Below, in pieces: positions 14 through 46,470 of a stretch of DNA of 46,549 bases. Numbering within the stretch: the first letter of the stretch is position 1; every line of letters starts with the position of its first letter. Position numbers and translations under genes: made by a program. The notes under the pieces are model-generated. The model searched no databases, had not been told where the DNA came from, and saw only the letters and a program-made list of their open reading frames with translations. Origin of the DNA: an uncultured Candidatus Saccharibacteria bacterium (GTDB lineage: Bacteria; Patescibacteriota; Minisyncoccia; Phycocordibacterales; GWA1-40-21); the NCBI GenBank assembly GCA_964416925.1, contig CAYQFQ010000001.1:1-46549 (forward strand), in the 5' to 3' direction.

Positions 14-339
14 CAAATGAAAAATATGTAAATATTTTTCATTTGTGCGCCCAGAGTAAGCAATATGAATTGCTTACGTTAGGGGTCGAACAGCGGAACT
101 ATGTTTTTCTAGTAAGAAAAACAAGTGAGCTGGTGCCCAGACTTTTCCGAGTGGCGACGAGGAAAAAGTCGAGGGAGAAAGTGTACTCACGTCCCCTATT
201 TTAGGAATGTGACCACAGACATTAAAGATAGTTAGGATACTGTCCATGTAATGGAAGACTCCCTACTGAAAAAATTAGATTGGGCGGGGTCGCGAGATTT
301 TCTAGCAAGAAAATACTTGTGACCACAATATTATGTGAT
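14..339 (+). ncRNA. tRNA-trailer structured block: hairpin, anti-acceptor, GTAAG hairpin, then module 81-197 and further hairpin modules
   Basis: Hairpin 14-45. TGCGCCCA at 46-53 is complementary to 6-13. Hairpin GTAAGCAA..TTGCTTAC at about 56-78. Module closed by AGGGG (81-85) and CCCCT (193-197), containing a U-rich stem with AGTA loop (104-121), a hairpin with 12-nt loop GAGTGGCGACGA (140-170) and the motif GGAGAAAGTGTACTCACGT. Hairpin 288-324 contains G:T wobbles that pair only on this strand. Confidence 0.5.
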
Positions 340-18839: not shown

Positions 18840-19029
18840 CAAATTAAAGGCCGAAAGGCTTTTTTAATTTGCTGGGGGAAGTGAGTGATAGTATCACTCA
18901 CGCCTTGGATTCGAACGCCGGAATACATTTTTCTTAGCAAAGAAAAATATGAGGCGGTGCCTAGACTAATCATACGCGACGGCGTATGATTAAGCCGAAG
19001 GAGAAAGTGTATTCACGTATCCAAGTTCC
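18840..19029 (+). ncRNA. tRNA-Gln mirror trailer (cleanest member of the family)
   Basis: Hairpin 18841-18870 with GAAA loop. TGCTGGGGGA at 18870-18879 (anti-acceptor, 10/10). Hairpin 18880-18901. CTTGGATTCGAAC at 18904-18916 (anti-T, 13/13). U-rich stem with AGCA loop at 18927-18948. Hairpin 18967-18992. GGAGAAAGTGTATTCACGT. Closing ATCCAAG at 19019-19025. Confidence 0.55.
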
Positions 19030-29563: not shown

Positions 29564-30436
29564 TTAATTCAAATTATTTTCTGCATCAATAAATTCATCT
29601 AAATCACCTTCAAGAACCTTATCTATATTGCTAGTTTCCACATCTGTTCTGTGGTCTTTTATCATCTTATATGGATGAAATACATAAGAGCGAATTTGAT
29701 TACCCCAATCAATTGAAACTGACTTACTAATGAACAAACCTCTTTCTTGAAGTTTCTTTTCTTCTTCCCTCTTTGCAAAAATTTTACCTTTCAAAATCTG
29801 AATTGCTTTTTCTTTATTTTGCGCTTGAGATCTTTCATTTGCGGAACGAACAGAAATACCAGTAGGAATGTGAATTACTTTTACTGCAGTTTCTCTTTTG
29901 TTCACATTTTGCCCTCCTGGGCCACCAGCCTTAGACATCTCAAATTTCAATTCTGTTTCTGGAACATCTAAGTCAGTATTTTTATCAATCTTTGGAACTA
30001 CCTCAACCATCGAAAAAGAAGTCTGTCTTAAACTTTTTGAATTGAAGGGCGAAAGACGGACTAGACGGTGGACACCAGATTCTTTTTTTATTTCACCGTA
30101 AATATTTTTTCCAGAAATTTCCAATGTTATATTCCGGTATCCTCCGTGATCATTCTCAGTTTCATCTATTACTTTATAACTCCAGCCCCTATTTGTAAAA
30201 AACTTTCCGTACATCTCGAAAAGAATTCGTGAAAAATCTTCGGCATCATCACCGCCAGCACCTGAGAAAATAGTCATAATAGCGTCACCTTTGTCATATT
30301 TATCTTTGCCTTCGATTTCATCCTTGAGAGATTGCATTTCCTTTAGTAATGACTGAGCTTTAATCTTATCAGCCCAAAAATCAGCTTGTAACATGAGCTG
30401 TTCTATTTCCATTATTCTTTTCTGCTTGTCTTCCAT
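29564..30436 (-). CDS. prfB: peptide chain release factor 2 (short; no programmed frameshift seen)
   Basis: SPF tripeptide (RLSPFNS) and GGQ (GPGGQNVNK). 290 aa, with domain 1 shortened. Confidence 0.85.
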   Translation of the reverse strand: MEDKQKRIMEIEQLMLQADFWADKIKAQSLLKEMQSLKDEIEGKDKYDKGDAIMTIFSGAGGDDAEDFSRILFEMYGKFFTNRGWSYKVIDETENDHGGYRNITLEISGKNIYGEIKKESGVHRLVRLSPFNSKSLRQTSFSMVEVVPKIDKNTDLDVPETELKFEMSKAGGPGGQNVNKRETAVKVIHIPTGISVRSANERSQAQNKEKAIQILKGKIFAKREEEKKLQERGLFISKSVSIDWGNQIRSYVFHPYKMIKDHRTDVETSNIDKVLEGDLDEFIDAENNLN

Positions 30437-30489
30437 AGGACCAATATAGCAAAAAAACGAGTATAAAAAAAGTCATAAAATAAACAATG

Positions 30490-30562
30490 AGCCAAGGGCG
30501 AGGATCGAACTCGCGACCTGTGGTTTACGATACCACTGCTCTACCAACTGAGCTACCTTGGC
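30490..30562 (-). tRNA. tRNA-Thr(CGU)
   Basis: Acceptor GCCAAGG/CCTTGGC, anticodon arm GTGGT-ATCGTAA-ACCAC, T loop TTCGATC. No mirror trailer. Confidence 0.9.
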
Positions 30563-30756
30563 AAAAATACACGGAAGCCGTTGACCAGGAGACTAGGAAG
30601 TCTGATTGGTCACAAATTTCTTTCGTCGTCACTCAAGAAATTTTCGACCCCAGCTTGTATGTTTTTTCTACTGAAAAAACATTACTTCGCTTTTCAATCC
30701 TGACACGTGTGCAAAGCAGTTTGCACACTCAACAGCACCCTCCGTTACACTACGGG
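30563..30756 (-). ncRNA. tRNA-Thr(GGU) mirror trailer ending in a 15-nt copy of the tRNA 3' end
   Basis: Minus-sense order: GCTGTTG (anti-acceptor, one G:U), hairpin GTGTGCAAA..TTTGCACAC, CAGGATTGAA (anti-T), U-rich stem with AGTA loop (30662-30679), hairpin with loop GAGTGACGACGA (30608-30649), TCCTGGTCAACGGCT (30576-30590). Confidence 0.55.
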
Positions 30757-31006
30757 AGCCGTTGACCAGGATTGAACTGGTGACCTTGTCATTCGTTTAC
30801 ACCTCATCTTACGAGAGGACTAGACTGTATCTTTCCGCCTGAGGCGGACCCTTGTCAGTCGTTCGAGCGCTTTTTATAGCGCTACGGTCTTGTCCTTTTT
30901 AAAAGGAGATTAACCGTAATTCGGGATTCATATAAAAGTTACCAATTATATGGGCAGGGGTTCACGACCCACCAATGACATGCTCTACCAACTGAGCTAC
31001 AACGGC
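30757..31006 (-). tRNA. tRNA-Thr(GGU) interrupted by a 177-nt intron (30794-30970) after anticodon position 36
   Basis: Exon 1 (31006-30971): GCCGTTGTAGCTCAGTTGGTAGAGCATGTCATTGGT. Exon 2 (30793-30757): AATGACAAGGTCACCAGTTCAATCCTGGTCAACGGCT. Joined, they give a canonical 73-nt cloverleaf with loop TTGGTAA. Promoter TTGAAA-N17-TATTCT upstream. Confidence 0.8.
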
Positions 31007-31285: not shown

Positions 31286-31470
31286 AAATTTATTAAAATT
31301 ACGAGAGAAACTTTGATCTGCCCGACAAGCAAATCCTCTGGCTAATCACCAGATGTCCCCTCTCAAATGGAAGCTTTTTATAAACTTTCATTTGAGAGGG
31401 CATCTTTTTCCCTTTTCAAATAACCTTCCCTATCTGACACTATTATAGCATAGAACTAAATAAAAAGCAA

Positions 31471-45912: not shown

Positions 45913-46020
45913 AATAATTTTTATTATTTGTTTTTAAAAAAAACTTTTGCTTTTACTAGTAATATTTTAACATAAATTTAAATATATTGTATATAGTAAA
46001 ACTATAACATTACAAAATAC

Positions 46021-46470
46021 TTAGACCTCGCTATGCTTTGTGTTCTCCGGCTTTCGAATCCCACAAGAATACGACCGGTTGGAATTTCGACCATTACATG
46101 GTCAGTACCCTCATTGGATTTTTTGTTTCGCTCTGCTCACAAAAAATGCTCAATGAGGCTTCGAATCCCAACGCAAGTGAATACTGAGGGGATTCGGCTA
46201 TTACATAGCCAGGTACTTTTCCATCTCGAAGACTCGATAAGGAAAAGTCTTTCGAATCCCACACGGAGGCAAGCAGTTGCGAGACTAGCGGGATATATTC
46301 GGTCACGAGTTTTTTGTTCGCCGTCGCTCACAAAAACCCTCGACCCCGACTCGCTATTTTTCCTGCTAGAAAAATTAGCTCCGTCTTTCGAATCCCAGCG
46401 TGAGTGAATACTTTCACTCACTCCGGTCGCGCAAATAAAATAGCCCCCTTTTGGGGGCTATTTTTATTTG
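46021..46470 (-). ncRNA. tRNA-Asp trailer: mirror segment followed by a tandem array of at least four stem-closed modules
   Basis: Minus-sense order: hairpin 46436-46468, TGCGCGACCGG (anti-acceptor, 11/11), hairpin GTGAGTGAA..TTCACTCAC, TGGGATTCGAA (anti-T, 11/11). Then modules closed by GGGATTC/GAATCCC-type stems. TTCGAATCCCA recurs on the plus strand at 46053, 46160, 46251 and 46387. Confidence 0.55.

Follow-up and report, generated by a model that had tools for sequence, protein, structure and literature searches.

Duplicated 3' ends of tRNA genes have been described in more than one setting. The tyrT operon of E. coli is said to carry distal repeats of 178 bp, linked to rtT RNA (Rfam RF00391), and integrative elements that target tRNA genes reportedly leave attL/attR duplications, one sublocation class of which is in the T-loop, a known sublocation for tRNA-targeting integrases. 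Further, plant mitochondrial t-elements and tRNA mimics of the mascRNA type act as tRNA-like processing signals. Here, we focus on a stretch of 46,549 nucleotides (nt) of contig CAYQFQ010000001.1 (assembly GCA_964416925.1) from an uncultured Candidatus Saccharibacteria bacterium, hereafter the window, and within it on the 194-nt spacer (30756-30563, minus strand) between the genes for tRNA-Thr(GGU) and tRNA-Thr(CGU). We report that this spacer is one copy of a large family of modular, structured non-coding RNAs located in the 3' trailers of Patescibacteria tRNA genes, the hosts of which are Paceibacteria/Parcubacteria-type genomes. Loci of related genomes or metagenomes that were compared with the window are designated by L-numbers, such as L001 or L187.

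A sequence-only reading of the window had drawn attention to an exact 15-nt duplication of the tRNA-Thr(GGU) 3' end, and this duplication is confirmed. On the plus strand, AGCCGTTGACCAGGA occurs exactly at two positions only, 30576-30590 and 30757-30771, where 0.03 is expected by chance, and none of 100 dinucleotide shuffles reached two copies. In tRNA sense, here the minus strand, it reads TCCTGGTCAACGGCT and corresponds to T59 to N73 of tRNA-Thr(GGU), whose 3' exon (30757-30793, minus; positions 37-73) terminates in ...UUCAAUCCUGGUCAACGGCU and provides repeat copy 1 with its last 15 nt (30771-30757). Imperfect similarity extends for about 10 nt beyond each 15-mer copy (CCCGTAGTGTA versus TCCGT--GTAT).

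The five sub-elements that the same reading had listed between the copies are all present. Followed along the minus strand, the spacer begins directly 3' of tRNA-Thr(GGU) with a leader hairpin, CCGU-AGUGUA-ACGG (30738-30756), which is kept in L187 with a change in the loop only. Next comes the anti-acceptor arm GCUGUUG (30730-30736; GCTGTTG in DNA letters at 30736-30730), whose partner is CAACGGC of repeat copy 2 (or of the tRNA), with one U.G pair; in the minimum-energy fold it pairs with 30583-30577, and the equivalent arm of other family members always matches the local tRNA. Exactly at the junction of the acceptor and T-stem complements stands hairpin H1, the hallmark of the family, which reads GUGUGCAAA-CUGC-UUUGCACAC (30707-30728) or, in DNA letters, GTGTGCAAA-CTGC-TTTGCACAC (30728-30707). 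The anti-T arm CAGGAUUGAA (30693-30702; CAGGATTGAA in DNA letters at 30702-30693) is the exact complement of the T-loop and T-stem 3' strand (UUCAAUCCUG), and it tracks the local tRNA from genome to genome, with GAUUGAA in the window and GAUCGAA in L004. The U-stem domain (30650-30692), closed by AGC...GCU, contains the hairpin UUUUUUC-AGUA-GAAAAAA (TTTTTTC-AGTA-GAAAAAA in DNA letters, 30679-30662) and is followed by a terminal hairpin (30608-30649) of the form GGUC-GA...GU-GACC enclosing a stem with loop GAGUGACGACGA, which is GAGTGACGACGA in the DNA letters of the GGTC...GACC hairpin.

The final C of the terminal hairpin (30608) stands in for C56 of the T-loop, and the second sense copy of the tRNA end consequently begins upstream of the 15-mer. 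From this C56, it continues (30576-30607) with AAUC (positions 57-60; AATC in DNA), 13 extra nt (AGACUUCCUAGUC) and repeat copy 2 (UCCUGGUCAACGGCU, 30590-30576), the junction reading GUGACC(30608)/AAUC...UCCUGGUCAACGGCU. A 13-nt linker, UCCGUGUAUUUUU (30563-30575, minus), which resembles the sequence after repeat copy 1, leads to tRNA-Thr(CGU) (30489-30562, minus), the downstream gene of the same operon, detected by ARAGORN and by Rfam with 68 bits. In tRNA sense, the spacer folds at -69.3 kcal/mol versus -46.6 kcal/mol for shuffles (z = -5.3), the opposite strand giving a weaker -58.3 kcal/mol. In this predicted fold of the Thr module, the arms form a 7-bp acceptor-like helix (GCUGUUG/CAACGGC) stacked on a T-stem-like one (CAGGA/UCCUG), with the discriminator unpaired; in some other members, the acceptor arm is absent, or paired through the discriminator.

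These other members were found by scanning for tRNA-end repeats together with antisense pieces. Modules follow five of the seven tRNA genes in or abutting the window: besides the Thr spacer, they occur behind a tRNA just upstream of the window (48-275, plus strand), in the tRNA-Leu trailer (423-~740, plus; two modules, of which one has a core of a third type with GAAUC-UGUAA-GAUUC at its end), in the tRNA-Gln trailer (18841-~19080, plus; core type B3-5) and in the tRNA-Asp trailer (~45990-46469, minus), where at least four modules of mixed core types stand in tandem, the internal ones without H1 or anti-acceptor arm. The order of parts in tRNA sense is an optional anti-acceptor arm, H1 with 9 bp and a CUGC loop, the anti-T arm, a three-way-junction core of which several interchangeable types exist, and a terminal hairpin; in every module, the last base of this hairpin serves as C56 of a second sense copy of the tRNA, which extends from T-loop to 3' end. 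The repeat is variable in length, 15 nt for Thr in the window and 21-37 nt in other members. In relatives, modules accompany tRNA-Met and tRNA-Asp of L002, tRNA-Gln of L003 and tRNA-Thr(CGU) of L001, and are found at the edge of L006 and in the Thr spacer of L004. The latter has its parts in the same order as the window (acceptor complement, H1, anti-T arm, U-rich hairpin, further hairpin, tRNA 3'-end copy), and its H1, again of 9 bp with a CUGC loop, shows two compensated differences from that of the window.

With regard to the core, a search of metagenome contigs with the 26-nt type-A pattern GGAAAANNACCTGGCTATGTARTAGC retrieved 98 stretches. A tRNA is detectable upstream of 84 matches, and 74 of these follow a same-strand tRNA gene at a distance of 61-125 nt; the tRNAs cover at least 23 anticodon classes. 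Without exception, the core, which ends in ...UAGC, joins C56 of a second version of the local tRNA from the T-loop to the 3' end, a repeat that continues 0-19 nt into the trailer. The Thr module of the window has a core of type B1-2 (GGGGUCGA-hairpin-GUGACC), also found in the Asp trailer of the window and in L187, L184, L095 and L102, always fused to position 57 of the local T-loop copy. Orthologous tRNAs bear differing cores, Thr having B1 in the window versus type A in L004, and Asp B1-2 in the window versus B3-5 in L002, which indicates that cores turn over relative to tRNAs. One type-A module, in L084 (1840-1990), is an orphan: it has a matching anti-acceptor arm and a tRNA-Gly-like 3'-end copy, with no detectable same-strand tRNA in the ~1.9 kb of contig upstream. 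In other respects, a small conserved hairpin (AAGCGUACUCGCGG and variants) interrupts the T-loop copy between 58/59 and 60 in L172, L081, L091, L102, L147 and L175 and at 19004-19017 of the window.

No module type matched a family of Rfam 15, whose models include those for tRNA, rtT, T-box and self-cleaving ribozymes, either in a gathering scan of the window or in E-value scans of the spacer, the window and 13 type-A/B loci, the latter scans returning tRNAs and chance-level matches only. Inspection by eye gave no convincing match to hammerhead, hepatitis delta virus (HDV)-like, hairpin or twister cores, and the type-A core is absent from IMG/VR, a looser pattern giving only chance matches among viral sequences. 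A non-exhaustive literature search found no description of such modules, although an earlier one is possible; the family is apparently undescribed.

Selection keeps the helices of the core as RNA in tRNA sense. This was established on an alignment (A1) of 51 distinct type-A metagenomic modules, against which a hand-drawn five-helix structure was tested. Of all cells, 88.8% are paired; shuffling lowers this to 77.9%, with none of 500 shuffles getting as high as the real alignment, and sliding the partners to 50.8% or less. The covariation score is 0.339, and drops to 0.150 with shuffles and to no more than 0.099 when partners are slid. In H1, 98.9% of cells pair and seven of the nine pairs vary on both sides, one of them as CG 23, AU 10, UA 10 and GC 4. 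The base of the U-stem covaries too (GC 30/AU 21; CG 34/AU 8/UA 6), and a pair of the terminal hairpin is UA in 32 modules and UG in 19. Non-Watson-Crick cells in H1, the U-stem and the terminal hairpin comprise 33 G.U versus 11 others; as a G.U pair is a C.A mismatch on the other strand, the fold is selected on the tRNA-sense transcript. In the Thr module, the stems of the window and of L187 differ by C-to-U and A-to-G substitutions, which give G.U pairs. Whole modules fold more stably in sense than in antisense in 42 of 61 cases, by 2.2 kcal/mol on average, a bias too weak to be informative. R1, a covariance model built from A1, matches the Thr spacer at 30664-30736 (minus strand; 28.9 bits, E ~1e-5), and with filters off all its matches with E < 0.01 in the 46.5-kb window fall in tRNA trailers.

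The arms, for their part, are tailored to the local tRNA: they are Watson-Crick complementary to the local T-stem at 77%, versus 52.5% with shuffled tRNA partners. Where a G.U pair in the tRNA stem allows a distinction, the arms complement the 3' strand in 11 cases and repeat the base of the tRNA 5' strand in two, and are hence true antisense copies of the tRNA; long-form arms also complement the discriminator and the trailer. Over 32 modules, the T-stem of the sense copy agrees with that of the tRNA at all 160 positions, and the arms are non-complementary at 39 of 160, a figure inflated by small arm indels. Whether the second repeat copy tracks the arm or the tRNA could be followed at few informative sites of the metagenome set.

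The tRNA-Thr(GGU)-(CGU) pair is conserved upstream of prfB, with a spacer of varying length, namely 1 nt in L003, 11 nt in L002 and L012, 14 nt in L005, 78 nt in L011, 94 nt in L013, 150 nt in L004 and 926 nt, including an open reading frame (ORF), in L001. The site is empty (1-14 nt) in L002, L003, L005, L012, L179, L183 and L184, and filled in L187 and L004. Relatives with tRNA-Thr(GGU) directly before tRNA-Thr(CGU), for which the sequence-only reading had proposed to look, thus exist, even at 93% identity in release factor 2 (RF2), the prfB product: at this distance, L179, L183 and L184 have an intron-less tRNA-Thr pair with a 12-nt spacer, and L187 has the same intron in tRNA-Thr(GGU), the same module and the exact 15-mer, at ~95% nucleotide identity. 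The existence of empty sites supports the view that the spacer is an inserted, non-coding, target-related element and not ordinary spacer.

A second polymorphism is seen after tRNA-Thr(CGU), where L183 and L181 differ from L179, L184, L180 and L182 by a 144-nt unit, with flanks 100% identical over ~690 nt in the aligned contigs L179, L183 and L184. This unit consists of a 123-nt type-A module and one 21-nt repeat, CGAUCCUG[G/C]GAGGUGGCUCAA. In the second repeat copy of L183, a G to C change restores pairing with the module arm (GGCAGGAUCG), from which it follows that the 5' part of this copy belongs to the element and that the joint lies inside the repeat. Judging from these sequences, integration, in which an element-borne copy recombines with the tRNA gene, and deletion, in which the two copies recombine, would both fit. 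The module is in any event dispensable and polymorphic as a unit. Elsewhere, a 74-nt insert immediately before tRNA-Lys(CUU) distinguishes genomes with 99-99.9% identity (L134 3662-3767 and L151 3055-3160 versus L108 1146-1178 and L140 1166-1198). It is flanked by a ~20-nt direct repeat of the leader and first 12 nt of the tRNA; this 5'-end duplication mirrors the 3'-end duplications of the modules.

The sequence-only reading had also suggested searching for an autonomous partner. When the ORFs around 112 loci were clustered, no recombinase, transposase or reverse transcriptase was recurrent; the recurrent ORFs encode LepA, RbfA, a YraN-like protein, RF2, ABC-F, FtsX and the CCA-adding enzyme, and represent tRNA-neighbourhood synteny. 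The sole ORF of the 181-nt insert is a mechanical one of 92 amino acids (aa) on the opposite strand, spanning the tRNA. Peel-and-paste insertion of the IS200/IS605 type, Cas1/casposase-type insertion with long duplications, IS110 bridge-RNA recombination and simple fold-back synthesis were each set aside, as they fail to explain both the position of H1 in the middle of the antisense segment and the want of a partner gene. The element is not a miniature inverted-repeat transposable element either: no inverted repeat relates its two ends, leader hairpin or AGTAAG on one side and ...UAGCC/...GUGACC on the other, and the direct repeats, of 15-37 nt, are variable and not of a fixed 2-10 bp. A small GIY-YIG-type ORF was noticed in L002 (1483-1737), between two tRNA-Met genes and beside module-bearing tRNAs.

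The account that we consider reasonably, if not strongly, probable is that of a co-transcribed, self-closing RNA module, gained and lost through the tRNA-end repeat. The module would be transcribed along with the tRNA-Thr genes, because a promoter-like TTGAAA-17-TATTCT (31051-31023, minus strand) lies 5' of tRNA-Thr(GGU) and no terminator-like site was found between the two tRNA-Thr genes. Its arms would then pair with its own downstream copy of the tRNA end, thereby closing the module as an independent domain and preventing the antisense arms from pairing with the real tRNA. The usual processing of tRNA ends, by 3' trimming of tRNA-Thr(GGU) and RNase P action at tRNA-Thr(CGU), would free it. 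The 15-nt repeat may accordingly have a dual role, as a structural strand of the module and as a short homology for deletion or acquisition of the unit; the recombining partners would be either the two copies themselves or the resident tRNA gene and a copy brought in from outside, for instance by DNA uptake.

A number of points weigh against this account. We infer transcription, folding and release of the module from its sequence, and at many loci a terminator-like hairpin with a U-tract, which could limit read-through, lies between tRNA and module. Some members (L082, L183) are devoid of the anti-acceptor arm, so that a full tRNA-like acceptor mimic is not universal. The arm-to-repeat mismatches comprise 16-21 G.U and 13-17 A.C, without the G.U excess seen in the core; maintenance of the arms by RNA-level compensatory evolution is therefore unsupported, the pattern looks like copying followed by drift, and the closing helix may reflect copying history more than selection as RNA. 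The difference between L183 and L179/L184 cannot be polarised and may be a loss only. Recombination via 15-21 nt explains loss and allele exchange, but not near-identical cores fitted to more than 23 tRNAs, and since the same tRNA bears different cores across genomes, a further copying mechanism must exist.

We regard as possible, albeit doubtful, a reading in which the modules are a new class of non-autonomous mobile RNA elements specific to tRNA genes, anchored at the near-universal T-loop sequence and writing a complement and a copy of the tRNA 3' end at each insertion. Such insertion, of a kind undescribed in bacteria, would be self-tailoring and perhaps RNA-guided or reverse-transcribed, proceeding via folded RNA, cDNA or single-stranded DNA. 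By analogy, the C56 junction, the variable repeat and the apparent 5' truncation resemble target-primed reverse transcription, and the sense-plus-antisense design resembles folded single-stranded attachment (att) sites.

It seems unlikely, though not strikingly so, that the modules are instead a host-beneficial cis element of tRNA operons, mostly vertically inherited. They would then form a processing or insulating signal mimicking the top half of a tRNA, which directs RNase P/RNase Z or a dedicated protein, or protects or times 3' maturation, the arms being matched by local copying. The very strong conservation of single-stranded junctions and loops, illustrated by ACCUGGCUAUGUARUAGCC, invariant across the 98 type-A sites, favours a function of this kind, as do the ~95% identity of the Thr module in L187, the identity of the Asp module between the window and L184, and the fact that modules follow most tRNAs of the window genome. 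H1, moreover, occupies the place at which the D and anticodon arms branch off in a tRNA, between the acceptor and T-stem strands, and arms, H1 and repeat together take an L-shaped, tRNA-like outline. Against this reading, the anti-acceptor arm is often absent or reaches beyond the discriminator, unlike in tRNA, and the arm pairs are without RNA-type wobble bias. A beneficial element also accords poorly with its dispensability, the closest relatives having 12-nt spacers and an isogenic pair differing by one unit, and with the differing core types at orthologous tRNAs.

Somewhat less probable still is a non-autonomous retroelement resembling a short interspersed nuclear element (SINE), whose RNA, ending in a tRNA 3'-end copy, would anneal to the nicked antisense strand of a tRNA gene in or near the T-loop and be copied there through target-primed reverse transcription. 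Cutting of the second strand at a variable site beyond the tRNA would then produce a duplication from the T-loop to a variable point of the trailer. The 3' junction fixed at C56, with a 5' junction and a repeat length (15 to 37 nt) that vary, would be expected of this process, and the internal tandem modules, without H1 and/or anti-acceptor arm, look 5'-truncated; structure is, in addition, selected on the transcribed sense strand. The perfect sense copy next to imperfectly complementary arms (160/160 versus 39/160 above) would reflect a repeat taken from the target and arms taken from the source; yet source-inherited arms would mismatch a new tRNA, in conflict with the 77% versus 52.5% complementarity. 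Further, the 5' part of the second repeat in L183 bears the element-type base, which places the joint inside the repeat and not at C56, and no reverse transcriptase or endonuclease is recurrent near the ~110 loci or was identified in the window. Target-primed retrotransposition of the non-LTR (long terminal repeat) type has no known bacterial case outside group II introns.

Mobility as folded single-stranded DNA, in the manner of attC or CTX attP, appears very unlikely. In this scheme, the arms and the tRNA-end copy would recreate a double-stranded 3' end of the tRNA gene, and a Xer-like tyrosine recombinase would exchange one strand with the gene itself. Sense and antisense copies of the target, a variable terminal structure and interchangeable cores would be accounted for, the extra-helical H1 could mark the strand, and the gain or loss of the unit precisely at the repeat, with the joint inside it, would follow; no dedicated recombinase nearby would be needed, although no recombinase has been linked to the modules. 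However, the wobble bias indicates selection as RNA and not as DNA hairpins, and the duplex is without the T-stem 5' strand and T54-T55, hence not a full symmetric core site for a recombinase.

The sequence-only reading had seen in the repeat the classic footprint of site-specific integration. That the element is inserted, polymorphic and target-related stands; that it is an integrase scar does not, since it belongs to a widespread structured-RNA family. A decayed attL/attR scar, left by an integrase-mediated island or prophage at the 3' end of tRNA-Thr(GGU), is accordingly a largely refuted and highly improbable explanation, even if the direct repeat of a tRNA 3' end starting in the T-loop is of the type expected. 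The inserted material is a conserved structured RNA that covaries and has its G.U pairs in tRNA sense, and at least 98 sites hold ~100-180 nt of such folded RNA, never a gene-bearing island. The repeat is more than an att core, being the 3' strand of a closing helix fused at C56 of the T-loop. Nearly all tRNA species are served (more than 23, with at least 23 anticodon classes for one core type), each with its own matching antisense arms and repeat, which a single site-specific integrase could not yield, integrase families using one or a few att sites; integrase genes are likewise not recurrent nearby, nor is any recombinase, transposase or reverse transcriptase present in, or recurrent near, the ~110 loci. 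Finally, chance or replication slippage, for which only the general frequency of short repeats could be invoked, is refuted by the shuffles and by the recurrence of the architecture, with covariation, at many tRNAs and genomes.

With regard to its surroundings, the module lies next to a tRNA gene that is itself interrupted. The 5' exon of tRNA-Thr(GGU), read from the sequence, covers positions 1-36 with the anticodon GGU at its end (30971-31006, minus), and is separated from the 3' exon by a group-I-like intron of 177 nt (30794-30970, minus), which lies outside the module in the anticodon loop after U36, with boundaries read as U36/G...G/A. The Rfam model Intron_gpI (RF00028) aligns with it over its full length at a sub-threshold 18.8 bits (E = 0.025; gathering score 50), and its fold has z = -3.0. 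The intron is also present in L187, where a hairpin has changed from CCGCC/GGCGG to UUCCA/UGGAA with every pair compensated, whereas all other relatives examined, including L179/L183/L184 and L001-L005, are without it. As this insertion splits the anticodon loop, tRNA-Thr(GGU) is called neither by ARAGORN nor by Rfam; intact orthologues are called by ARAGORN in L002-L005 and L179. A tRNA-Thr host and a size of 177 nt are unusual among bacterial tRNA group I introns.

Downstream of the tRNA-Thr pair are prfB (RF2), ftsE and ftsX; look-ups of the exact RF2 and FtsE proteins returned no entry. The RF2 relatives in reference genomes are Patescibacteria (Candidatus Taylorbacteria, Paceibacterota, 'Patescibacteria group'). 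The window homologue (29564-30436, minus), which leaves a gap of only ~50 nt to the tRNA, is short, with 290 aa and a Pfam PCRF match that begins only at position 94 of the 194-position profile. Among 120 homologues listed, nearly all have 276-315 aa, so the short form appears typical of the clade. In comparing the window with L187, we noticed that tRNA-Thr(CGU) (30489-30562 versus 2876-2949) differs throughout its acceptor, anticodon and T stems, although the intron, tRNA-Thr(GGU) and module upstream are ~95% identical, which suggests replacement of the downstream gene in one of the two lineages. The orientation of the pair relative to prfB is inverted in L179 (1728-1887), L183 (1725-1884) and L184 (2744-2903), all at 93% RF2 identity, unlike in the window and L187. 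On the other side, a conserved long hairpin, GAUGCCCUCUCAAAUGAAAG...UUUGAGAGGGGACAUC (window ~31330-31440, minus; also in L179, L183, L184 and L187), precedes a short ORF, which in L179, L183 and L184 is called as a gene of 56 aa, and both are located between an adenylate-kinase-like gene and the tRNA-Thr genes.

If our account holds, a conserved, folded RNA passenger unannotated in databases would accompany most of the tRNA genes across a large part of the Candidate Phyla Radiation, and a new abundant class of RNA would be added in organisms whose RNA biology is almost unexplored. Its design, in which antisense arms to an essential tRNA would be neutralised by a decoy copy of the same tRNA end and the core is fused at C56, would point either to a new route by which DNA or RNA reaches tRNA genes or to a new layer in the processing of tRNA operons. 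In practice, modules give rise to tRNA-fragment repeats and terminator-like palindromes that can mislead predictors of islands and att sites, just as the group-I-like intron hides a tRNA-Thr gene from standard tRNA finders.

Compared with known systems, the modules share with the attL/attR duplications of integrative elements a direct repeat from the T-loop to the 3' end that flanks an insert and leaves the tRNA intact, as well as the occurrence of filled and empty sites. They differ in that the insert is a structured RNA of 100-180 nt without integrase, that more than 23 targets are used, that homology starts at C56 and not in the T-stem, and that the complement of the target is carried along. 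With attC and CTX attP, they have in common an imperfect hairpin defined by structure, a variable terminal structure, extra-helical features, the presence of both target strands in the element and the precise gain or loss of units; however, they are selected as RNA, as judged from the G.U bias, and integron integrase, cassette genes and the GTTRRRY core are missing. The acceptor/T-stem-like helix within a longer transcript could recruit RNase P/RNase Z and so set RNA ends as in t-elements or mascRNA, but the T-loop is replaced by a helix extension and a large core, the acceptor-like arm is optional, and it is a copy of the neighbouring tRNA that supplies the mimic, with no Rfam tRNA or mascRNA match on the modules. 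Like SINEs, the modules are short, non-coding and tRNA-related, with a fixed 3' junction, variable duplications and apparent 5' truncations; in contrast to them, they are bacterial, are inserted only at tRNA genes, have no partner reverse transcriptase found near the 112 loci, and carry a tRNA 3' end and not a tRNA-derived promoter head. The closest classical analogue appears to be the distal repeat of E. coli tyrT with its rtT RNA. The latter is unrelated in sequence (no Rfam rtT match on the modules), is confined to one enterobacterial locus, whereas the modules serve nearly all tRNA species, and is without antisense arms, H1, three-way-junction core and C56 fusion. What both have in common are trailer repeat units that each end in a copy of the tRNA 3' end (~19 nt in tyrT), and the tyrT units are said to share a transcript with the tRNA, from which tRNA-processing enzymes release them as a small stable RNA.

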